64,000 bases of DNA from positions 8,497-72,496 of IMG/VR virus record IMGVR_UViG_3300047554_000536; one strand, 5' to 3'. Positions within the stretch are counted from its first letter, which is position 1. The number at the start of each line of letters is the position of its first letter. The notes under the pieces are model-generated. The model made no database searches and was not told the origin of the DNA. It saw nothing but the letters and a program-made list of their open reading frames with translations. Origin of the DNA: a virus. The translations under genes and the position numbers were made by a program. Of this stretch, positions 4,722 through 55,694 are shown in pieces.

Positions 4722-5062
4722 TGAGGAAGTTCGTAGAAGTTCGTTTAGATATTGAAGGTCTGCATAACTGGCCTGATTGCAATCTACCACACGTAGAGTA
4801 CTTAGCACATCTACATCGTCACACATTCCAGATCCTTTGTCGAGCAGAGGTATCGCACGGAAATCGTGACATTGAGTTTATTGATCTCAAACACAAAATC
4901 AAACAACACATTGCAAAGACTTGGTATGATCCAGCTTATGGATGTTGTAACTTTGGAGCAATGAGTTGCGAAATGATCGCAGAAGATTTATTAAACTACT
5001 TTGGTTTGTGTAGATGTTCTGTATCAGAAGATGGAGAATTCTTTGGAATTGTTGAGATTTAG
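4721..5062 (+). CDS. second QueD-like T-fold protein; candidate CDG decarboxylase (DpdL-like)
   Basis: EGLHNW, HLHRHTF, RDIEFI, SCEMIA, VSEDGE motifs; QueD paralog inside the deazaguanine cluster. Confidence 0.65.
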   Translation: MRKFVEVRLDIEGLHNWPDCNLPHVEYLAHLHRHTFQILCRAEVSHGNRDIEFIDLKHKIKQHIAKTWYDPAYGCCNFGAMSCEMIAEDLLNYFGLCRCSVSEDGEFFGIVEI

Positions 5063-5077
5063 TCGTATATTCGTATC

Positions 5078-5545
5078 ATGTTAAAGACAAAGAGAATCGT
5101 TTTACTATTTGGTAAAATCTGTAGTGGCAAAAGTACTTACGCAGATGCTTTATGTTATATCACAAAAGCAAAGCGAATTACTGTGTCGGACATTGTAAAA
5201 AGAGTTTCGGGTAAGAATACTCGTAGCGAATTGCAAAACACACAGAACCTTGATATGCAGATTGCTCAGGAGCTAATCGCTGAGATTGAAAAGTATGAGA
5301 GAGTTGTTGTTGATGGTATCCGTCAGGCAAGTATTGTATGGGGTCTAGTAAACGAATTTGGCTTTGACAACATTGATATGATTTGGCTAGAAGCTGCTGA
5401 CGATGTTCGTAAGTATAGATTCTACGATCGATCAATCGCAAAGGATGATTTAAGTTTTGAAGAAGCAGATGCAAGAGATGAAGAGTTAGGTCTTGGAGGT
5501 GTTGCAAAAGCGTTTGAGAATTGGTATATTAAAGTAAATAACTAA
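5078..5545 (+). CDS. P-loop nucleoside/nucleotide monophosphate kinase
   Basis: GKICSGKST Walker A, VVVDGIR, NMP-kinase size and lid region. Confidence 0.75.
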   Translation: MLKTKRIVLLFGKICSGKSTYADALCYITKAKRITVSDIVKRVSGKNTRSELQNTQNLDMQIAQELIAEIEKYERVVVDGIRQASIVWGLVNEFGFDNIDMIWLEAADDVRKYRFYDRSIAKDDLSFEEADARDEELGLGGVAKAFENWYIKVNN

Positions 5546-8483: not shown

Positions 8484-8515
8484 GTTGGTTTTTTGAAAAA
8501 AAGGTTGTATCTTTA
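8484..8515 (+). promoter_or_regulatory. promoter upstream of the polA operon
   Basis: GTTGG 8484 + TATCTTTA 8508 (24-nt offset). Confidence 0.65.
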
Positions 8516-36790: not shown

Positions 36791-36841
36791 CTGTTGCCTA
36801 AACGAAAATAAGGTAGTATATTTAAAGAAATAAACAAACAT

Positions 36842-36994
36842 ATGGCAGGTAACTGGAAATTAAAAATTGAATGTCTTGATCAGTGGATGAAGGCAACAAC
36901 TGGAAAAGGGTTGTTTCGTGAGAAGTCGGAAAAACCGAAGACTGAAGTGAAATTTGGTAAACCAAATAGAACGAAATTCAACAAACAACGTTAA
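36842..36994 (+). CDS. small basic protein (50 aa)
   Basis: Read by hand: MAGNWKLKIECLDQWMK...; promoter at 36793-36824. Confidence 0.55.
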   Translation: MAGNWKLKIECLDQWMKATTGKGLFREKSEKPKTEVKFGKPNRTKFNKQR

Positions 36995-37194
36995 TGGCTA
37001 AAAAAAGGGAAGAACCGGTCTTTGAGAAGTTTACAAGGATTTATGAGGATGAGGATACTAAGACAGTTTGGACATATGATTACTCAGTCACAAAGACCGG
37101 TCCCGTTAGTGTAGAGATCACTTACAAAAATCTCCCAAAGGTAGAAAGAAAAAAGAAAAAAACAAAAATAACTAGAAAAACTGTTGCAAAATAG
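36994..37194 (+). CDS. small basic hypothetical protein
   Basis: ORF track; TAATG coupling. Confidence 0.6.
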   Translation: MAKKREEPVFEKFTRIYEDEDTKTVWTYDYSVTKTGPVSVEITYKNLPKVERKKKKTKITRKTVAK

Positions 37195-37214
37195 GATTTT
37201 CTAGAGTATATTTA
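37183..37214 (+). promoter_or_regulatory. promoter of the tRNA operon
   Basis: GTTGC 37183 + TATATTTA 37207; a TATTTATA box also lies at 37236. Confidence 0.75.
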
Positions 37215-37248
37215 AAGAAAGAAAGAAAACGAGTATATTTATATAAGC

Positions 37249-37371
37249 ATGAAAGCAAACCTTAGACATATAGCATCTTGTAATTATCGCCTAGAGCAAT
37301 CGATTCCGGCAGGAATGGGCTTTACGTGGGTGGATAGCAAATGCAAGTCCGAGGTTCACAAACTCATGTAA
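37249..37371 (+). CDS. putative attenuator leader peptide (40 aa, all 20 amino acids)
   Basis: MKANLRHIASCNYRLEQSIPAGMGFTWVDSKCKSEVHKLM*; its 3' end overlaps the antiterminator strand. Confidence 0.75.
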   Translation: MKANLRHIASCNYRLEQSIPAGMGFTWVDSKCKSEVHKLM

Positions 37372-37415
37372 GGTAATGTAAAACAAACAAACCTAAATAT
37401 AGATGAACCTCGGAT
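37347..37415 (+). promoter_or_regulatory. antiterminator helix of the tRNA-operon attenuator
   Basis: TCCGAGGTTCA (37348-37358) is perfectly complementary to TGAACCTCGGA (37404-37414). Confidence 0.8.
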
Positions 37416-37440
37416 CCAAAAGATACCGAGGTTTTTTTTT
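37406..37440 (+). terminator. attenuator (intrinsic terminator) upstream of the tRNA array
   Basis: AACCTCGG(ATC)/(GAT)ACCGAGGTT stem with T9. Confidence 0.9.
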
Positions 37441-37447
37441 GGGTTAA

Positions 37448-37460
37448 TGTTCTTTGAAAT
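37448..37460 (+). promoter_or_regulatory. boxA-like antitermination element
   Basis: TGTTCTTTGAAAT resembles rrn boxA; sits just before the first tRNA. Confidence 0.55.
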
Positions 37461-37475
37461 GTTGGATACAAAAAC

Positions 37476-37547
37476 GTATTAGTAGCTCAGTGGTAGAGCA
37501 GGCGGCTGTTAACCGTCAGGTCGTAGGTTCGAATCCTTCCTAGTACG
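37476..37547 (+). tRNA. tRNA-Asn(GTT)
   Basis: Cloverleaf; GGCGG-CT-GTT-AA-CCGTC; GGTTCGAATCC. Confidence 0.9.
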
Positions 37548-37553
37548 CAATAT

Positions 37554-37628
37554 TGCGGGATGCGTAGAAGTTGGTTATCTCGTCAGTCTCATAAGCTGAA
37601 GTCCCCGGTTCGAGTCCGGGTCCCGCAA
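37554..37628 (+). tRNA. tRNA-Met(CAT) (initiator vs elongator uncertain)
   Basis: TGCGGGA/TCCCGCA acceptor; TCAGT-CT-CAT-AA-GCTGA. Confidence 0.8.
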
Positions 37629-37634
37629 CATAAT

Positions 37635-37708
37635 GATCTCGTAGCTCAGTTGGATAGAGCACCTCACTTTTAATGAGGGAGTCGATGGTTCGAGCCCATC
37701 CGGGATCA
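37635..37708 (+). tRNA. tRNA-Lys(TTT)
   Basis: CCTCA-CT-TTT-AA-TGAGG. Confidence 0.9.
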
Positions 37709-37714
37709 CTTAAT

Positions 37715-37785
37715 ACGTCTGTGGTGAAATGGTATCATGCCGGTCTCCAAAACCGTTGTTGAGGGTTCGAATCCTTCCAGTCGTG
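37715..37785 (+). tRNA. tRNA-Trp(CCA)
   Basis: CGGT-CT-CCA-AA-ACCG. Confidence 0.85.
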
Positions 37786-37790
37786 CAATT

Positions 37791-37863
37791 GCCTTCGTAG
37801 CTCAATTGGCAGAGCACCGCACTTGTAATGCGGGGGTTGTAGGTTCGACTCCTATCGAAGGCT
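37791..37863 (+). tRNA. tRNA-Thr(TGT)
   Basis: CCGCA-CT-TGT-AA-TGCGG. Confidence 0.9.
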
Positions 37864-37870
37864 CAAAAAT

Positions 37871-37944
37871 ATTGGTATAGCTCAATTGGTCAGAGCATTC
37901 GCCTGATACGCGAAAGGTTTCAAGTTCGAGTCTTGATATCAATA
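37871..37944 (+). tRNA. tRNA-Ile(GAT)
   Basis: TTCGC-CT-GAT-AC-GCGAA. Confidence 0.9.
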
Positions 37945-37950
37945 CTACAA

Positions 37951-38023
37951 CTAGGTGTGGGAAAGTTGGTAATCCGCGGCATTTGGGATGCTGAGATCGC
38001 AGGTTCGAGTCCTGCCACTTAGA
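37951..38023 (+). tRNA. tRNA-Pro(TGG)
   Basis: CGGCA-TT-TGG-GA-TGCTG. Confidence 0.9.
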
Positions 38024-38028
38024 CAAAC

Positions 38029-38102
38029 GGTCCTTTAGCTCAGTTGGTTAGAGCAGCTCGCTCATAACGAGAAGGTCTCAGGTTCGAGCCCTGAATGGAC
38101 CA
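38029..38102 (+). tRNA. tRNA(CAT), likely Ile2 (lysidine) or Met
   Basis: CTCG-CT-CAT-AA-CGAG; GGTCC/GGACC-A acceptor. Confidence 0.8.
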
Positions 38103-38106
38103 CAAA

Positions 38107-38226
38107 GGAAGTGCAAGAGAGTCCTTAATGCGCAAAGAAGATCCTTGCTGTACAGTGTGGAAAGACATACAAAATAGTTTTAACGGGGGCTCCGGTTCTA
38201 TTCAAAAACGCGATTAGCCTTCACCA
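38107..38226 (+). ncRNA. candidate structured ncRNA A in tRNA array
   Basis: No ORF; several complementary segments, some crossing (see findings). Confidence 0.5.
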
Positions 38227-38299
38227 CTTTCCTTAGCTCAGTTGGTAGAGCGTTGCCCTTACATGGCAAAAGTCGTTGGTTCGAGTCCAGCAGGGAAGA
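38227..38299 (+). tRNA. tRNA-Val(TAC)
   Basis: TTGCC-CT-TAC-AT-GGCAA. Confidence 0.9.
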
Positions 38300-38369
38300 C
38301 AAGGAGTTCTCGATCTCAAGTGCTGGTTAGTGAAACATCTAATCGATGAGCCCATCAAAATCAGAATAG

Positions 38370-38451
38370 GCCTGTATCGCATAGCGGCAATTGCAGCTGA
38401 CTGTAAATCAGCTCCCTAACGGGTTCGGAGGTTCGAGTCCTTCTGCAGGCA
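38370..38451 (+). tRNA. tRNA-Tyr(GTA)
   Basis: GCTGA-CT-GTA-AA-TCAGC; long variable arm. Confidence 0.9.
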
Positions 38452-38459
38452 CAAAAAAT

Positions 38460-38532
38460 GGACCGGTAGCTCAGTTGGTAGAGCGTTGGCCTGAAGAGCC
38501 AAGCGTCGGGGGTTCGAATCCCTCCCGGTCCA
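38460..38532 (+). tRNA. tRNA-Phe(GAA)
   Basis: TTGGC-CT-GAA-GA-GCCAA. Confidence 0.9.
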
Positions 38533-38541
38533 CAATAATAA

Positions 38542-38614
38542 GCAGGTGTCGTATAATGGCTTATTACTCCAGTCTTCCAAACTGGAGATGAGAGTTCGAT
38601 TCTCTCCACCTGCT
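38542..38614 (+). tRNA. tRNA-Gly(TCC)
   Basis: CCAGT-CT-TCC-AA-ACTGG. Confidence 0.9.
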
Positions 38615-38617
38615 CAA

Positions 38618-38698
38618 AAGACAGATACCCGACGGGGAACGTAGAAGCGCCGGAATGAATTAGCACTGTAGGTCCGGGACGTGTGCAAAGTCTGTCTT
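38618..38698 (+). ncRNA. candidate structured ncRNA C in tRNA array
   Basis: AAGACAGA/TCTGTCTT closing stem, internal stems and possible pseudoknot. Confidence 0.55.
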
Positions 38699-38703
38699 AT
38701 CTT

Positions 38704-38776
38704 GGGGTTGTAGCTCAACTGGCTGAGCGTTACATTTGCAATGTAAAGGATGAGGGTTCGAATCCCTTCAGCTCCA
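38704..38776 (+). tRNA. tRNA-Ala(TGC)
   Basis: TTACA-TT-TGC-AA-TGTAA; G3:U70. Confidence 0.9.
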
Positions 38777-38781
38777 CAATC

Positions 38782-38853
38782 GGTCCATTGGTGTAATGGT
38801 TAACATGCGGCACTGTCTATGCTGCGCTACGAGTTCGATTCTCGTATGGACCG
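38782..38853 (+). tRNA. tRNA-Asp(GTC)
   Basis: CGGCA-CT-GTC-TA-TGCTG. Confidence 0.9.
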
Positions 38854-38859
38854 CTATCT

Positions 38860-38930
38860 TGTCCTGTAGTGAAATGGCATCACACGGCGTTTTGGCCGCT
38901 GGGTTAGAGGTTCGAATCCTCTCGGGACAA
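38860..38930 (+). tRNA. tRNA-Gln(TTG)
   Basis: CGGCG-TT-TTG-GC-CGCTG. Confidence 0.85.
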
Positions 38931-38935
38931 CAATT

Positions 38936-39021
38936 GGAAGAGTAACTGCAGCGGCCTGCAGCACTGTCTTGAAAACAGCTGGTACCTTGACCGGTATGGG
39001 GATCGACACCTCACTCTTCCG
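38936..39021 (+). tRNA. tRNA-Ser(TGA)
   Basis: CTGT-CT-TGA-AA-ACAG; long variable arm; atypical T-loop ATCGAC. Confidence 0.85.
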
Positions 39022-39028
39022 CTTATAT

Positions 39029-39102
39029 GGTGTCTATAGCTCAGTAGGTAGAGCAAAGGGTTGTGGTCCCTTGTGCCGTGAGTTCGATTCTCACTAGTCA
39101 CC
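39029..39102 (+). tRNA. tRNA-His(GTG)
   Basis: AAGGG-TT-GTG-GT-CCCTT; G-1:C73. Confidence 0.9.
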
Positions 39103-39107
39103 CAATT

Positions 39108-39191
39108 GGAGAGTAAAGCAGTCAGGGCACTGTCACCGCCTGCTAAGCGAGTGGTACTTTCGAGTATGAATTTCGATTATTCTGCTCTCCG
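39108..39191 (+). tRNA. tRNA-Ser(GCT)
   Basis: CGC-CT-GCT-AA-GCG; long variable arm; GGAGAG/CTCTCC. Confidence 0.8.
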
Positions 39192-39196
39192 CAAAT

Positions 39197-39268
39197 GCCT
39201 CTATCGTTCAATGGATAGGACACGGCCCTTCTAAGGCTGTTATTGGGGTTCGAGTCCCTATAGAGGTA
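39197..39268 (+). tRNA. tRNA-Arg(TCT)
   Basis: CGGCC-CT-TCT-AA-GGCTG. Confidence 0.9.
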
Positions 39269-39270
39269 CT

Positions 39271-39401
39271 AGGTGATAAAAAAGCGTAGGTTGGTAGACG
39301 TGGAGAGACGTGTCGCAAGGGTACACACTTAGCAGCTCTATTATGGTGTGTGAAGCACTGCTCAGCAGATCCCAGATTCCTGATAAAGCCAACCATCACC
39401 T
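39271..39401 (+). ncRNA. candidate structured ncRNA D in tRNA array
   Basis: AGGTGAT/ATCACCT and GGTTGGT/GCCAACC nested closing stems plus three inner hairpins. Confidence 0.55.
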
Positions 39402-39406
39402 TTCAT

Positions 39407-39478
39407 GCTCTGTTAGTTCAACGGATAGAACACTTGACTACGGATCAAGAGATAGGAGTTCGAATCTCTTACGGAGTA
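39407..39478 (+). tRNA. tRNA-Arg(ACG)
   Basis: CTTGA-CT-ACG-GA-TCAAG. Confidence 0.9.
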
Positions 39479-39485
39479 CTAATAA

Positions 39486-39555
39486 GGTCAGTTTAGTCGT
39501 GGAGGCTGGTAGGTCTGCAAAACCTATGGAGTTGGTTCGATTCCAACATTGACCT
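39486..39555 (+). tRNA. tRNA-Cys(GCA)
   Basis: TAGGT-CT-GCA-AA-ACCTA; U73; irregular D-arm. Confidence 0.8.
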
Positions 39556-39571
39556 CAAAAAAACAAAAGCT

Positions 39572-40027
39572 ATGAAGACGTTTAGAAGTTTAACAAACAG
39601 AAAGGAAGTAGATTTAATTCCTTACGTATCCAACTTTATCAAAGAAAATGATGACACAGTATTGTATGTTGGTTGTGACTCTCAGAACGTCCGCGACAAT
39701 ACAAACTACGCTGTCGTGATCGTTTTGTATAATCCTGGAAAGGGTGGGCACGTATTGTATTCAAGAACCACAATGCCAAAGATTGAAGACCGTTACACTA
39801 AGTTGTGGAATGAGGTTGAGTATTCAATCGAGGTAGCAGAGTACTTAACTAACAATGGTATCCAACGTCCAAGCTATATTGACTTAGACTTGAATCCAGA
39901 TCCAAAATACAAAAGCAATCAAATTTTGAGAGCTGCGCTTGGATATGTGGAGAGTATGGGGTATATTGCTAGATGTAAACCTAATGCAATGGTAGCATCT
40001 CACGTAGCAGATGCCTTATGTAAATAA
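39572..40027 (+). CDS. RNase H-like YkuK (DUF458) family protein
   Basis: YVGCDSQ, GGH, EVEYS, IDLD, ASHVAD. Confidence 0.75.
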   Translation: MKTFRSLTNRKEVDLIPYVSNFIKENDDTVLYVGCDSQNVRDNTNYAVVIVLYNPGKGGHVLYSRTTMPKIEDRYTKLWNEVEYSIEVAEYLTNNGIQRPSYIDLDLNPDPKYKSNQILRAALGYVESMGYIARCKPNAMVASHVADALCK

Positions 40028-40040
40028 GTTATCAACAGCT

Positions 40041-40072
40041 GTTGTCTAGGTGAACAAAAGTTCCTATCTTTA
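40041..40072 (+). promoter_or_regulatory. internal promoter for the Leu tRNAs
   Basis: GTTGT 40041 + TATCTTTA 40065. Confidence 0.65.
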
Positions 40073-40084
40073 CTGTATAGAAAT

Positions 40085-40162
40085 GCCCCTTTGGCGGAAT
40101 TGGTAGACGCGCTAGACTTAGGATCTAGTCTTCGGGTGAGAGTTCGAGTCTCTCAGGGGGTA
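40085..40162 (+). tRNA. tRNA-Leu(TAG)
   Basis: CTAGA-CT-TAG-GA-TCTAG. Confidence 0.9.
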
Positions 40163-40167
40163 CAAAT

Positions 40168-40253
40168 GCTACTGTGGTGAAATAGGTAGACACGAGGGAC
40201 TTAAAATCCCTTGGCCAGTGATGGTCGTGCCGGTTCGATTCCGGCCAGTAGTA
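40168..40253 (+). tRNA. tRNA-Leu(TAA)
   Basis: AGGGA-CT-TAA-AA-TCCCT; long variable arm. Confidence 0.9.
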
Positions 40254-40268
40254 CTAAATTAATTACAT

Positions 40269-40487
40269 ATGTGGAGTAAAGTGTTAAAGTTTGCAACCAA
40301 TTTTTTATATTGGTTTTTAGGTTTCTCAATGATGGCATTGGGTGCAGAGCTTTTATTGATATGGCTCAAAGAAGATGGTTTTAGTATTACTGGTTTTATT
40401 CTAGGATTCATGGGTTACCTAATCCTACGACCAGCAGCTGAGTACTGGAAAGATCAACTCCTTAGTGTTTGGAAATCTAAAGAATAA
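40269..40487 (+). CDS. small membrane protein (two TM helices)
   Basis: Two hydrophobic segments. Confidence 0.65.
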   Translation: MWSKVLKFATNFLYWFLGFSMMALGAELLLIWLKEDGFSITGFILGFMGYLILRPAAEYWKDQLLSVWKSKE

Positions 40488-40505
40488 GTTGTATATTCAA
40501 ACAAT

Positions 40506-40577
40506 GGCCCGTTAGTCTATCGGTTAGGACGCATCCCTTTCACGGATGAGAGACGAGTTCGATTCTCGTACGGGCTA
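40506..40577 (+). tRNA. tRNA-Glu(TTC)
   Basis: CATCC-CT-TTC-AC-GGATG. Confidence 0.9.
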
Positions 40578-40592
40578 CTAAAATTAAAACAA

Positions 40593-40847
40593 ATGAAAAG
40601 GTTACAAATCATCACATTGGCACTTTTAACAGCAGCTGCAACAATCACCTCTTGTACAGACAATCAACGTGCAAAGAATTGGGGTGGAACCGAAACAATC
40701 ACACTAAAACCAAACGAGCGAGTGCTTAACGTCACTTGGAAAGAGACTGAGATGTGGATTTGCACTCAGGATACTACTACCGGAGTTGTGTACTTCCGCG
40801 AGAAGTCTAACTGGGGTATGATGGAAGGTACGGTTATTTTGAAGTAA
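40593..40847 (+). CDS. small lipoprotein
   Basis: Signal peptide with ITSC lipobox; RAKNWGG motif. Confidence 0.7.
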   Translation: MKRLQIITLALLTAAATITSCTDNQRAKNWGGTETITLKPNERVLNVTWKETEMWICTQDTTTGVVYFREKSNWGMMEGTVILK

Positions 40848-41340: not shown

Positions 41341-41381
41341 ACTAACCCGTCATAAGAACCTGCATTTAATTTTTGAAGACT

Positions 41382-41825
41382 ATGGAAAAATATTACATTT
41401 ATTTAGATGACCTACGCACACCACGCCAAGAGGAGTTGGTAGATAGGCCACAATGGACAGTCGTAAGAAACTACGATGAGTTTGTAAACAAGATCACTGA
41501 GGTTGGTTTGGAGAATGTTGAACTCATCTCACTAGATCACGACTTAGGTGAGTCTGCGATGCAAGAGTGGCACACTAACGTATACCACAACTACACCTTA
41601 GATTACAACAACATTACTGAGAAGACTGGAATGGATTGTACTAAGTGGTTGGTAGAGCAATGGTTGAATGGTGCACCAGTATGTCGTGTTATGGTTCATT
41701 CAGCAAATGCTGTTGGAAGTGCGAACATGATGGGGTATATTAACAACTACAAGCACATCCACCGCTTACCACAAGACTGCGCTAGATGGGTAGTGCCTCA
41801 TGATATTGAAACAATTATAGGATAA
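41382..41825 (+). CDS. cyclic-phosphate-processing receiver-like domain protein
   Basis: YLDDLRTP, VRNYDEF, ISLDHDLG, KTGMDC, VHSAN.VG. Confidence 0.75.
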   Translation: MEKYYIYLDDLRTPRQEELVDRPQWTVVRNYDEFVNKITEVGLENVELISLDHDLGESAMQEWHTNVYHNYTLDYNNITEKTGMDCTKWLVEQWLNGAPVCRVMVHSANAVGSANMMGYINNYKHIHRLPQDCARWVVPHDIETIIG

Positions 41826-44458: not shown

Positions 44459-45211
44459 ATGAAAATTACATTAATATCAGATACACATACGAGACATCGT
44501 CATTGTGAGCAAGACTTACCAGGTGGTGACTTGCTGATCCACGCAGGAGACTTTATGAACTCTGGATATAGTCCATACGAGGCAGAAGAATTCTTCAAGT
44601 GGTTTGATGCAATTGAGCATTATGATACAAAAGTATTCATTGCAGGTAATCATGATCGTATAATGGAGAATGATCCTGAATGGGCTAGAGGTGTATTGAC
44701 TGGGTATAAGACTATTGAGTATCTACAAGATGAGAGTCTAACGCTATACTACGATGGTCCTAATGGCGATCATCCAGAAGACAACGTTCGTATTTGGGGT
44801 GCACCTTGGCAACCTGAGTTTTACAATTGGGCTTTCAATCTTCCTCGCAATGGTGAAGAGTTACGGGAGAAGTGGTCTTTGATTCCATCAAATACAGATA
44901 TCCTCATTACACACGGTCCTGCTCAGACGTATCTAGATACATCAGGTGCTCCATACAACACACCGCTACTTGGGTGTGAGTTATTGAAAGAGCGTATTGA
45001 ATCAATTAGACCTAAGATCCATGTGTGTGGCCATATTCACGGTGGTCATGGTTACTACTTTAATGGGCACACTCACTTTTTCAATGCATCGATACTGGAT
45101 GAGAGGTACAATTACGCCAATCTTCCATTCATGTTTACCTGGGATCAAGTAACAAATCAAATTATTTGGGATGAACCTGTTGCAAAAACGAAAAAGAGGT
45201 TGTATATTTAG
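44459..45211 (+). CDS. calcineurin-like metallophosphoesterase
   Basis: SDTH, HAGD, AGNHD, THGP, GHIH; promoter at 44423-44454. Confidence 0.85.
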   Translation: MKITLISDTHTRHRHCEQDLPGGDLLIHAGDFMNSGYSPYEAEEFFKWFDAIEHYDTKVFIAGNHDRIMENDPEWARGVLTGYKTIEYLQDESLTLYYDGPNGDHPEDNVRIWGAPWQPEFYNWAFNLPRNGEELREKWSLIPSNTDILITHGPAQTYLDTSGAPYNTPLLGCELLKERIESIRPKIHVCGHIHGGHGYYFNGHTHFFNASILDERYNYANLPFMFTWDQVTNQIIWDEPVAKTKKRLYI

Positions 45212-52455: not shown

Positions 52456-52720
52456 AGAGCAAAAGCAAGAGCAAGCGGTTGTTGATCTTATCAACAAGAT
52501 GTTTGAGATTGCTGGACATGAGGTTACTTACAATGACATCTTAGGGGTGGACAACTGGTTCCAACAGTACACAATGACTATGAAGCAGTCAGAGGAGTTT
52601 AGAGATTGGGGTAAGAAGTATCTTGTTAAGACATTTCGAATGTCAGCCAAGAGAGCAGAGAACGAAATGATGTGGTTTAATTTACAATGGGGTTTAAAAT
52701 ATTCAGACTATGGAAAATAA
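52436..52720 (+). CDS. hypothetical protein
   Basis: ORF track. Confidence 0.6.
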   Translation: MAKRLTREQKQEQAVVDLINKMFEIAGHEVTYNDILGVDNWFQQYTMTMKQSEEFRDWGKKYLVKTFRMSAKRAENEMMWFNLQWGLKYSDYGK

Positions 52721-53834
52721 TAATAGCGTATGTTACATTGGTACAATCGGAGAGATTCTACCAATAAGTGGAGCAGATAATATCGAGCTAGCGTTGGTCG
52801 GTGGCTGGCAAGCTATCATCAAGAAGGATGCATATGAGGTGAATGATTTAGTTATGATAGCTACTACAGATGCTATTATTCCACAAGCGCTTTCAGATGA
52901 TATGAATGTCACTAGCTACCTACGCAAAGGTGGACGTGTGCGCACTGTTAAGTTGAGAGGTGTGTACTCAGAGTGCTTGATTATTCCAGTACAATACATT
53001 CCATTCATGGATAACTACTACGATGGTAAGGACATGATGGACGTGATGGGTATCTACAAATACGAACCACCAGTACGTCAGGTACAATTATCATCAGGTC
53101 GTAAGATCCGATACCAAGATAATCCTAACTTCCATATCTACTACAAGTTTCCTAACCTAAAGAATGTAGCTGGAATGTTTACTGAGGGTGATTTAGTTGA
53201 GATTACTAGAAAGATTCATGGTACAAATGCTCGCTATGGTATTGTGAAGAAGGCGAAGCTATCTTTGTGGGATAAGGTTAGAAAGTTCTTTACAAACAAT
53301 CCATGGATCGAGTATGAGTATGTGTACGGATCACATAACGTGGAGAAAGGTTCTGACTCTCAAGGATTCTACGATACTGATGTGTGGGCAACAATTGCAG
53401 AAAAGCATGATATTAAGAATGCATTGTGGGATTACGCTAAGACTCAAGGTCACAAAGCAATTGGTGAAGGTATTGTATTGTATGGAGAAATCTACGGAGC
53501 CGGTATTCAAAAGAATTACGACTACGGACTGAGCCATACTGACTTCATGGGCTTTGATGTTAAGGTTAATGGTGAGTACGTCTCTACTTACAGAGCTTGG
53601 AAAATTATTGAGCATCAGTTAAATTTGGAATATGTACCAATCTTACACTACGGTGAATGGTCTCAGGAGATCCAAGACAAGTACACATTCAACAACTATG
53701 TTGGAGATTCAAAGGTACCACACGAAGGTATTGTTATCAAATACTTCGACGGTTCACGTAACAAAGTAGCTAAGGTGATCAATCCAGATTACTTGATCTA
53801 TGGAGAGAAGCATGACGTAGGAGATTCACACTAA
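52710..53834 (+). CDS. RNA ligase, DRB0094/Rnl2-like
   Basis: N-terminal OB (GADNIE, KLRGVYSE); KIHGTN, YGEIYG.GIQKN, FDV, EGIV, KVINPDY. Confidence 0.9.
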   Translation: MENNNSVCYIGTIGEILPISGADNIELALVGGWQAIIKKDAYEVNDLVMIATTDAIIPQALSDDMNVTSYLRKGGRVRTVKLRGVYSECLIIPVQYIPFMDNYYDGKDMMDVMGIYKYEPPVRQVQLSSGRKIRYQDNPNFHIYYKFPNLKNVAGMFTEGDLVEITRKIHGTNARYGIVKKAKLSLWDKVRKFFTNNPWIEYEYVYGSHNVEKGSDSQGFYDTDVWATIAEKHDIKNALWDYAKTQGHKAIGEGIVLYGEIYGAGIQKNYDYGLSHTDFMGFDVKVNGEYVSTYRAWKIIEHQLNLEYVPILHYGEWSQEIQDKYTFNNYVGDSKVPHEGIVIKYFDGSRNKVAKVINPDYLIYGEKHDVGDSH

Positions 53835-55034: not shown

Positions 55035-55694
55035 ATGAAATTAGTATTAGAAAAAGGACAAAGGTTATGGTTTACGAGTGATACTCACTACAACCACACA
55101 AACATCTGCTCAGCCACTACTAAGTGGACTAATGCTCAACGATTGACCAGAGAGTTCAAATCCCTTAGTCATATGAACGATGCATTGGTGAATAACATCA
55201 ATGCATTGGTTGGGGAGAACGATATTTTGATTCACTTAGGTGATTGGTCGTTTGGTGGATTTGAGAGTATTGCTGAGTTTCGTAACAGATTGGTGTGTAA
55301 GAATATTCACTTGGTACTAGGAAACCACGATCATCACATTCAACGAAACAAAGAGGGTATACAAAGCTTATTCAGTTCAGTACACGAGTACTTGTATTTG
55401 AATGTTGTACGTCCTGGTGTCACTACAAAGTCTGCTATGGAGCGATATGATTTTGTTTGTATGCACTACCCGATTGCTAGTTGGAATAACATGAACAACG
55501 GAGTGATTCACTTACACGGTCACGTTCACCTAATGCCTGATGCACGATTACATAAAGGTAAGGCAATGGATGTTGGTTGTGAGGGGAATGGTTTAGAGCC
55601 TATCTCACTACAAGAAGTATTAAACATCATGGAGAAGCAGCCAATAGCTAAGCTAGCATTGCCACATGATCATCACGAATTAAGATTAGAGTAA
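55035..55694 (+). CDS. metallophosphoesterase
   Basis: FTSDTH, HLGD, GNHD, HYP, HGHVH, DVG. Confidence 0.85.
   Translation: MKLVLEKGQRLWFTSDTHYNHTNICSATTKWTNAQRLTREFKSLSHMNDALVNNINALVGENDILIHLGDWSFGGFESIAEFRNRLVCKNIHLVLGNHDHHIQRNKEGIQSLFSSVHEYLYLNVVRPGVTTKSAMERYDFVCMHYPIASWNNMNNGVIHLHGHVHLMPDARLHKGKAMDVGCEGNGLEPISLQEVLNIMEKQPIAKLALPHDHHELRLE

Follow-up and report, generated by a model that had tools for sequence, protein, structure and literature searches.

The trp and his leaders of enterobacteria, together with the multivalent thr and ilvGMEDA leaders, are attenuators of amino-acid operons. Many large phages carry tRNA genes, and it has been debated whether these serve codon usage, replace decaying host tRNAs or provide an escape from tRNA-cleaving defences; to our knowledge, almost nothing is known about how the expression of phage tRNA genes is controlled. 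Here we describe a short module that precedes the tRNA array of a virus, found in a stretch of 64,000 nucleotides (positions 8,497 to 72,496 of the IMG/VR virus record IMGVR_UViG_3300047554_000536), which we call the window; the coordinates below are those of the window, and the module and the array lie on its + strand. The module comprises a promoter-like site, a 40-codon leader open reading frame (ORF) at 37249–37371 and an intrinsic terminator at 37405–37440. Judging from its sequence and that of its relatives, we take the module to be probably an attenuator of transcription of the ribosome-mediated (leader-peptide) kind, whose leader samples the tRNAs behind the terminator; with it, the phage would probably produce its tRNAs at times of slow decoding. 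Four observations carry this reading: the module has the anatomy of an attenuator, it is conserved, its two helices co-vary, and the leader codons match the gated tRNAs.

The attenuators of amino-acid operons and the phage element share a promoter, a short leader ORF, an intrinsic terminator and an antiterminator sharing a strand with the terminator; the position of the ribosome decides the outcome in the former and would do so in the latter, and the leader codons are cognate to what the operon supplies. Among the six features that we listed as defining leader-peptide attenuators, four were found in the phage element, i.e., the leader ORF, the intrinsic terminator, the mutually exclusive antiterminator and codons cognate to the regulated products. 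The known attenuators, on the other hand, regulate biosynthetic enzymes through tandem codons for one to three amino acids, whereas the phage element would regulate tRNAs and its leader carries about one codon each for up to 23 tRNA species. It further differs in its weak anti-antiterminator, in being phage-borne and in bearing no sequence relation to them. T-box riboswitches also sense tRNA status and choose between a terminator and an antiterminator before translation-related genes. In contrast to the module described here, a T-box binds one tRNA directly without translation and is marked by a conserved specifier loop and T-box sequence; no T-box match was found in the Rfam scan of 36800–40800 at E ≤ 1. 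The codon match described below depends on the reading frame, which points to the ribosome as the reader, unlike in a T-box. The same scan led us to reject a pseudo-tRNA or a known RNA family as the identity of the element.

Two further systems are comparable in what they respond to. The trn operon of Anabaena sp. PCC 7120, the closest published case that we found, is a large accessory tRNA array that is induced by translational stress and co-regulated with an RNA repair ligase gene. This operon is cellular, not viral, and its control is at the promoter level, with direct repeats overlapping the -10 box (PMC8421152) and TrcR as the repressor (PMC10272220); the available portions of these two reports describe neither a leader peptide nor a terminator switch. 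Ribosome-mediated attenuators of the resistance genes bmrCD (PMC4191407) and vmlR (PMC9226507) resemble the phage element in that slowed translation of a short leader relieves a terminator and rescues translation, but they respond to ribosome drugs and, in the accessible parts of these sources, their leader codons are not matched to the regulated products. A full-text literature search, with supplements outside its reach, returned no account of attenuation before phage tRNA genes, in agreement with an earlier note on this DNA, which knew of no described phage attenuator of this kind; an attenuator that joins a leader to a tRNA array thus appears new in print.

The earlier note had arranged the locus as promoter, 40-codon upstream ORF, terminator and tRNA array, and each was found in its place. 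The promoter-like site P1 (37184–37214) matches 9 of 12 hexamer positions with a 17-nt spacer and has the same box type as sites 5' of neighbouring genes; a 15-mer around its downstream box occurs five times in the window at two or fewer mismatches, against 0.44 expected. A second copy of the downstream box (37232–37246; two mismatches to the 15-mer) ends 3 nt before the leader start codon; if it serves as a second promoter, as it may, the transcript would be almost leaderless. This box is 100% identical in the diverged relative L166 (our loci are numbered with an L), and boxes like it precede the ORF in L013, L014, L019 and L032. The terminator is a hairpin of about -15 kcal/mol (3' arm at 37426–37433) followed by nine T (37432–37440), and lies 36 nt before the first tRNA gene of the array (37476–40578; ARAGORN and Rfam), which we presume to be the regulated genes. 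It was not listed by an automated terminator scan because its loop and bulge exceed the limits of the scan. Within the transcript, three regions appear to form alternative helices: region 1 (37258–37267; codons 4–7), which folds as an anti-antiterminator closing helix with region 2; region 2 (37347–37358; codons 33–37), the putative antiterminator strand; and region 3 (37404–37415), the 5' arm of the terminator, which is common to the antiterminator and terminator helices in the folds.

The leader contains all 20 amino-acid types, and the 20th type is reached at residue 29, as the earlier note had pointed out. Such a composition was seen at a frequency of 1.3e-4 among 100,000 random peptides with the composition of the phage and in none of 15,089 real 29-residue windows. 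The mean for collecting 20 equally frequent types is about 72 draws, the textbook coupon-collector value that the note had quoted, and the codon pairs from split families that it had named for Arg, Ile, Ser and Gly are present in the leader. Codon 29 ends 12 nt before the antiterminator strand, again as it had given.

To collect relatives, 44 IMG/VR loci were gathered with a 151-aa RNase H-like ORF of the array as bait, and ten more loci came from a pattern scan of metagenomes. With nhmmer, full-length matches came from the window itself, from 8 of the 159 other loci compared and from all ten metagenome loci; together they represent 11 distinct copies. These fall into four subgroups, i.e., the window and L166; L002, L006 and L162; L013, L014, L019 and L168; and L008 and L009. 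The order of promoter, short ORF, terminator and tRNA genes is the same in all copies, and each has the terminator. More distant modules of the same build occur twice in L032 (one before tRNA-Pro, the other before tRNA-Ala) and twice in L043 (one with a GTG start, the other without a clear start codon), each directly before a tRNA block. Outside these loci the family is rare. In a blastn search of 36990–37560 against 50,697 phage records, the tRNA-Asn part alone was matched and no record covered at least 80% of the query, so that, by this search, no cultured phage holds the leader. A first, loose DNA pattern yielded 114 stretches, none of which was a true copy by nhmmer, and a pattern for the L008 subgroup recovered no contigs beyond the two already known. 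The leader peptide was found in 11 clusters among 5.8 billion proteins and in 11 matches among 1.84 billion representatives; seven of the latter were short, and the four long ones were taken as false (three match in seven short stretches, one has no listed stretch). We thus count about seven true representatives of the peptide family among the 1.84 billion.

The complementarity between the end of the ORF and the 5' arm of the terminator, which the earlier note had singled out, recurs in the relatives. In the window, the best duplex of regions 2 and 3 reaches -21.1 kcal/mol, and none of 1000 dinucleotide shuffles of the ORF was as good. The ORF segment that pairs best with the terminator 5' arm is located, in each of the 11 copies, in the last 6–25 nt before the stop codon, with shuffle P values of 0 for the window and L166, 0.024–0.034 for L002, L006 and L162, 0.016 for L013, 0.074–0.10 for L014, L019 and L168, and 0.16–0.18 for L008 and L009. 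Pairing at the ORF end is also seen in three of the four diverged modules (P of 0.007–0.014), whose terminator sequences are unrelated. When the ORF ends and terminator arms were arranged in a 9 x 9 matrix, the cognate pairs summed to -113.6 kcal/mol, a value that none of 20,000 permutations reached. The stop codon is placed always just after region 2, with one case just before it. Furthermore, RNAalifold on a MAFFT alignment recovered the terminator as 10 pairs, two of them with compensatory changes. In a control of 189 terminators from all loci, upstream complements of 7–8 bp were not rare in themselves; this control was not composition-matched and included many GC-rich, unrelated contigs. 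Altogether, the architecture of an attenuator is supported by the conservation of the module and by the co-variation of the antiterminator with the terminator arm.

The second line of evidence is the relationship between the leader codons and the tRNAs behind the terminator, scored with one fixed set of wobble rules that applied equally to the controls; P values refer to random ORFs with the codon usage of the respective phage. The leader of the window has a cognate codon for 23 of 24 tRNAs (P = 0.008), and random ORFs average 19.1. Coverage was 22/22 in L002 (P = 0.0008), 23/25 in L006 (0.027), 21/22 in L013 (0.006), 18/20 in L014 (0.09), 20/21 in L019 (0.01) and 23/23 in L008 (0.005). The diverged modules gave 10/10 for the first of L032 (P = 0.047), 8/8 for the second of L032 (0.01) and 6/6 for the second of L043 (0.023). 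Thus, all ten modules are at or above the random expectation, five of them sample every tRNA, and in each of the ten the codon content of the leader agrees with sampling of the gated tRNAs.

Two loci illustrate the match. L032 carries two leaders before two different tRNA blocks: the amino acids of the tRNAs were covered 10/10 and 8/8 by the cognate leaders and 4/8 and 6/10 when the leaders were swapped, and the leader residues belonging to the set of the array were 22/29 and 19/30 in the cognate combinations against 7/29 and 11/30 in the swapped ones. In L008, Leu is the only amino acid that the leader lacks, although it is the commonest residue of the proteome, and both tRNA-Leu genes of this locus are located upstream of the leader; a diverged relative of the L008 type likewise lacks Leu in its leader. 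Windows of real genes were as good on both measures in 75 of 13,591 cases for the window, 0 of 14,748 for L008, 1 of 16,142 and 0 of 16,060 for the first and second modules of L032, and 194 of 16,696 for the second module of L043; on coverage, 11 of 14,839 were as good for L002. The matching codons were concentrated in the modelled sensing zone as opposed to the tail in the second modules of L043 (8/15 vs 0/9) and L032 (14/20 vs 4/10).

The presence of all 20 amino acids, which the earlier note took as the central trait, was not conserved in this form. The leaders of the relatives contain 14–19 types, and Cys is absent in six of nine loci. Since the content of the leader tracks the tRNAs behind the terminator, the 20 amino acids of the window appear to be the full-array case of a general rule, not itself a conserved feature. 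We had considered that the 20-amino-acid feature arose by chance, given that relatives have 18–19 types (P of 0.04–0.19 each), and dropped this explanation after the match between leader and array was tested.

The pattern of sequence change bears on what is constrained in the leader. Between the window and L166, the ORF is identical at 123 of 123 nt and the region from the promoter box through the ORF at 147 of 149; identity is 59/119 upstream of 37228, 17/26 in the spacer after the stop codon, 33/35 in the terminator stem-loop, 8/12 in the tail and 67/73 in tRNA-Asn. In contigs from four RNA libraries, all differences were confined to the spacers. L002 and L013, which belong to different subgroups, differ in 22 of 37 codons, and 20 of these changes are non-synonymous, with no bias in codon position. 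The leader frame is free of stops in all 11 copies, compared with 1–6 stops in the other two frames, and the chance of an open frame is 0.05–0.15 per copy; all 11 copies and three of four diverged modules retain a start codon followed by an open frame. Because these are retained while the peptide changes freely between the subgroups, constraint seems to act on translation as such and on the RNA structure, and not on the protein product.

These data also bear on a translation-independent RNA switch, whose leader would itself bind a ligand or a tRNA and carry the ORF only incidentally. The frozen synonymous sites between the window and L166 fit such a switch, as do hairpins inside the ORF that keep their place and change their sequence between subfamilies, the layout of closing helix, antiterminator and terminator, which is that of many riboswitches, and the formation of the antiterminator in models that contain no ribosome. 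A switch of this kind gives no account, however, of the retained start codon and open frame or of the stop codon fixed next to region 2. The match between codons and tRNAs is read in frame, and is therefore a property of the reading frame. Moreover, no Rfam family was found; the single match of the leader was L10_leader with 24.6 bits against a gathering threshold of 44 (E = 0.46), and RNAalifold gave no conserved core structure. We thus regard a translation-independent switch as improbable.

Returning to the attenuator, we infer translation of the leader, its coupling to the polymerase and the physiological trigger, and the proposed course of events would be as follows. Transcription would start at one or both of the promoters at 37184–37246, and a ribosome would translate the 40-codon leader. 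A ribosome in pace with the polymerase would cover the last 8–10 codons, and with them region 2, as the 5' arm of the terminator emerges; the terminator hairpin would then form and transcription would stop at 37440. If the ribosome were delayed anywhere in codons 1–30, region 2 would be free to pair with the 5' arm, the terminator would not form and the polymerase would run into the tRNA array. Nearly every tRNA is represented by about one leader codon, so that a lack of any sampled tRNA should raise the synthesis of the whole set, and the module would act as a feedback loop on decoding capacity.

Folding models agree with the middle part of this scheme. We used transcripts cut before the 3' arm of the terminator and a ribosome mask of 30 nt. 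In all ten modules, the 5' arm paired with the 3' end of the ORF with a mean per-base probability of 0.5–0.9, and this pairing was lost only with the ribosomal A site in the last 8–10 codons. The predicted switch in the window is at codons 30–31, just past the codon that completes the 20-amino-acid set, so that the models conform to the proposal of the earlier note that a stall in codons 1–29 would free the antiterminator. The closing helix of regions 1 and 2 was present in the folds of six of seven copies.

The models also predict that the antiterminator forms without any ribosome, because the helix of regions 1 and 2 is weak, and the claim that the element is specific to tRNA shortage is not supported: read-through is expected in the models without a ribosome as well, so that a shortage of tRNA would be indistinguishable from other failures of translation. 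An attenuator that reports general translation failure or arrest by the nascent peptide, instead of tRNA supply, would draw on the same behaviour. Host shut-off, ribosome-targeting toxins and antibiotics are examples of its possible causes, and the models give read-through whatever the cause. The invariant residues of the leader (see below) could belong to an arrest motif, and the known resistance-gene attenuators, as described in the parts of the sources available, work in this manner. A sensor of this kind would make the match to the array secondary. Yet neither the result of the swap in L032 nor the absence of Leu in the L008-type leaders is needed by such a sensor, and the peptide diverges freely outside six positions, and we therefore give little credence to a reporter of general failure or peptide arrest.

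Several observations weigh against an attenuator that samples its tRNAs. Translation, termination and regulation are all deduced from sequence. When the complete RNA is folded to equilibrium, the terminator is favoured over the antiterminator in every relative, irrespective of the mask, and the decision must therefore be kinetic, as in trp. The ribosome-free antiterminator noted above belongs here as well: the helix of regions 1 and 2 is weaker than that of regions 2 and 3, no compensatory change was seen in the former among the copies compared, and RNAalifold on the MAFFT alignment recovered nothing beyond the terminator. Six residues of the peptide and region 1 are invariant in the main family, so that a pure codon-sampling model is insufficient. 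The diverged module of L043 before tRNA-Ala has no clear ATG ORF, and in the first module of L032 the strongest duplex is located elsewhere (P = 0.107), with a 6-bp match alone at the stop codon. Sampling is incomplete in places: the tRNA-Leu for UUR codons has no leader codon in the window, tRNA-Cys is unsampled in L006, L013, L014 and L019, tRNA-Val in L014 and one tRNA-Ser in L006. Each tRNA is sampled about once, not by tandem codons, and the sensitivity to a partial shortage may therefore be low. Finally, tRNA genes occur without the module in L033–L035 and L025, and the relatives with two tRNA genes (L007, L018, L020 and L022) have no module.

Further points on the same side come from the region behind the terminator and from one related ORF. 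In 5 of the 11 copies (L002, L013, L014, L019 and L168), the interval between the terminator and the first tRNA gene (tRNA-Asn) is about 120 nt long and contains a promoter-like site with the repeated hexamers of the phage itself, read in the sequence of the five copies and scanned in L013 and L002. The array of these five would therefore not depend on read-through alone; read-through would add to a basal level. No such site is present in the other six (the window, L166, L006, L162, L008 and L009), in which 31–68 nt lie between terminator and tRNA. Gating of the array by the terminator alone, as proposed in the earlier note, is thus not supported for these five copies. In L024, a Cys-rich ORF of 61 aa (632–817) is found inside a related tRNA array; its first approximately 14 codons are nearly base-for-base those of the leader family, and it continues without a terminator to 10 nt before tRNA-Val.

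Both observations would suit an independent small gene that has a promoter and a terminator to itself, encodes a short peptide or a stable small RNA and neighbours the array only by chance; the array would then be transcribed from other promoters or by unregulated leak-through. The six invariant residues fit such a gene, and so does the strong fold of 37215–37450 (z = -3.67; 0 of 200 shuffles as good). In addition, two RNA libraries contain contigs of approximately 236–238 nt that extend over no more than the unit 37226–37440. What a small gene leaves unexplained is that the 3' end of the ORF follows the terminator arm lineage by lineage, that the leader codons follow the gated tRNA set, including two leaders in one phage, and that the changes are mostly non-synonymous without bias in codon position. 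No Pfam or PHROG family was found at E ≤ 0.001 for four peptides of the main family and three further ORFs (weak matches at 0.018–0.28). An independent small gene is thus, in our assessment, unlikely.

The contigs themselves come from four metatranscriptome runs and cover 37226 onward. Two (X19 and X21; 236 and 238 nt) end near the T-run at 37436–37440, and two others (387 and 409 nt) bridge the terminator into tRNA-Asn. Contigs of RNA libraries give neither transcript ends nor strand, and DNA may be carried over; all they show is that RNA libraries contain the unit and that leader and tRNA occur joined, either in RNA molecules or in DNA. The ends of X19 and X21 are at most a weak hint of termination, and the uncovered parts of 37100–37900 in the RNA runs prove nothing. 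The 238-nt contig of X21 is circularly permuted, with 37436 joined via two letters to 37226; the joint may stem from a strain with the module in tandem, from a cycle or circular artefact of the assembly, or from a ligation.

A conserved motif of approximately 19 nt (37451–37469) is located between the terminator and the first tRNA gene. The segment 37448–37469 is identical at 22 of 22 positions in L166, with both flanks different, and the motif is unique in the window at up to three mismatches. It lies 8–14 nt before the first tRNA in L002, L006, L008, L013, L014, L032 (first module) and L043, and the six copies that have no promoter behind the terminator all share it. Candidate roles for the motif are a signal for processing, binding by a protein and weak promoter activity; a promoter of an undescribed type, which it also could be, is another point that would weaken the gating proposed here. 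Pairing of the motif with the leader and its origin as a repeat of an ORF segment were rejected, as no consistent partner was found.

A more far-reaching version of the attenuator deserves mention as a possibility, albeit a doubtful one. In this homeostat, the leader would be a test strip for a complete, self-sufficient tRNA set, the loss of any host tRNA would release the whole set, the set would act with the RNA-repair genes downstream, and leader and array would co-evolve. If so, anticodon-nuclease defence, phage-induced decay of host tRNAs and starvation are possible triggers, and the replacement tRNAs would act alongside genes for an RNA ligase and the processing of cyclic-phosphate ends. 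Sub-arrays would receive matched leaders, and tRNAs moved before a leader would drop out of it. This would amount to a general, undescribed way in which phages regulate their tRNA genes. Setting the homeostat aside, the attenuator itself, if real, would be a feedback controller of decoding capacity, and ribosome-mediated attenuation, familiar from amino-acid supply, would apply to the supply of tRNAs as well. The cassette of about 230 nt would provide a direct experimental handle on when a phage 'decides' that decoding by the host fails, and the match between leader and array would be a simple sequence rule for finding such controllers in metagenomes.

The source virus record is 72.5 kb long, with an estimated completeness of 43%. 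The DNA polymerase of the window is 47% identical to that of Flavobacterium phages, from which we infer a host among Bacteroidota. The public sequencing run that best matched the window DNA is a freshwater metagenome, possibly the own source of the record; shares of 0.16–0.40 in public runs are no evidence of habitat or expression. In the array, ARAGORN and Rfam each called 22 tRNA genes. Two additional tRNA-Ser at approximately 38936–39022 and 39108–39192, with anticodons for UCN and AGY, were detected by ARAGORN with -ps90 but called neither at its default threshold nor by Rfam at E ≤ 1; they occupy syntenic gaps in which the relatives have tRNA-Ser. With these two, the array would contain 24 tRNAs for all 20 amino acids. 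Downstream of the array are ORFs matching a cyclic-phosphate-processing receiver domain, two metallophosphoesterases and an RNA ligase with the PHA02142 OB-fold domain (41373–41822, 44459–45208, 52710–53831 and 55035–55691). They form a possible set for RNA end healing and sealing, and we counted their presence in favour of the attenuator.

Several observations concern the tRNA genes of the relatives. A tRNA with a CAT anticodon closely precedes the leader, and lies outside the gate formed by the terminator, in L002 (3477–3551), L006 (3351–3426), L013 (1972–2047), L014 (3346–3421) and L019 (2690–2771), and L008 has Leu, Met and Leu tRNAs in this position. L001 (4400–4960), the closest locus by flanking genes (94% identity in a 135-aa neighbour), is without the leader, the terminator, 19–20 tRNAs and the RNase H-like ORF and keeps Leu, Leu, Glu and Arg tRNAs alone, which looks like a large deletion or replacement. 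Genes for tmRNA with tag peptides were predicted by ARAGORN in L033 (4460–4828), L034 (7497–7873), L035 (7493–7868) and L045 (3507–3982). Upstream of tRNA-Arg in L007 (3860–4360), L018 and L020–L022 (approximately 5030–5530), there is an apparent tRNA-like gene with a large insert, which has class II tRNA-like ends and is not called by ARAGORN. The 151-aa RNase H-like ORF (39572–40027, + strand; PF04308, 8e-27), which interrupts the array of the window, is embedded in tRNA arrays across the whole phage group (the window and loci L002–L045), and its distant relatives were found in Vibrio, Pseudomonas and huge uncultured phages.

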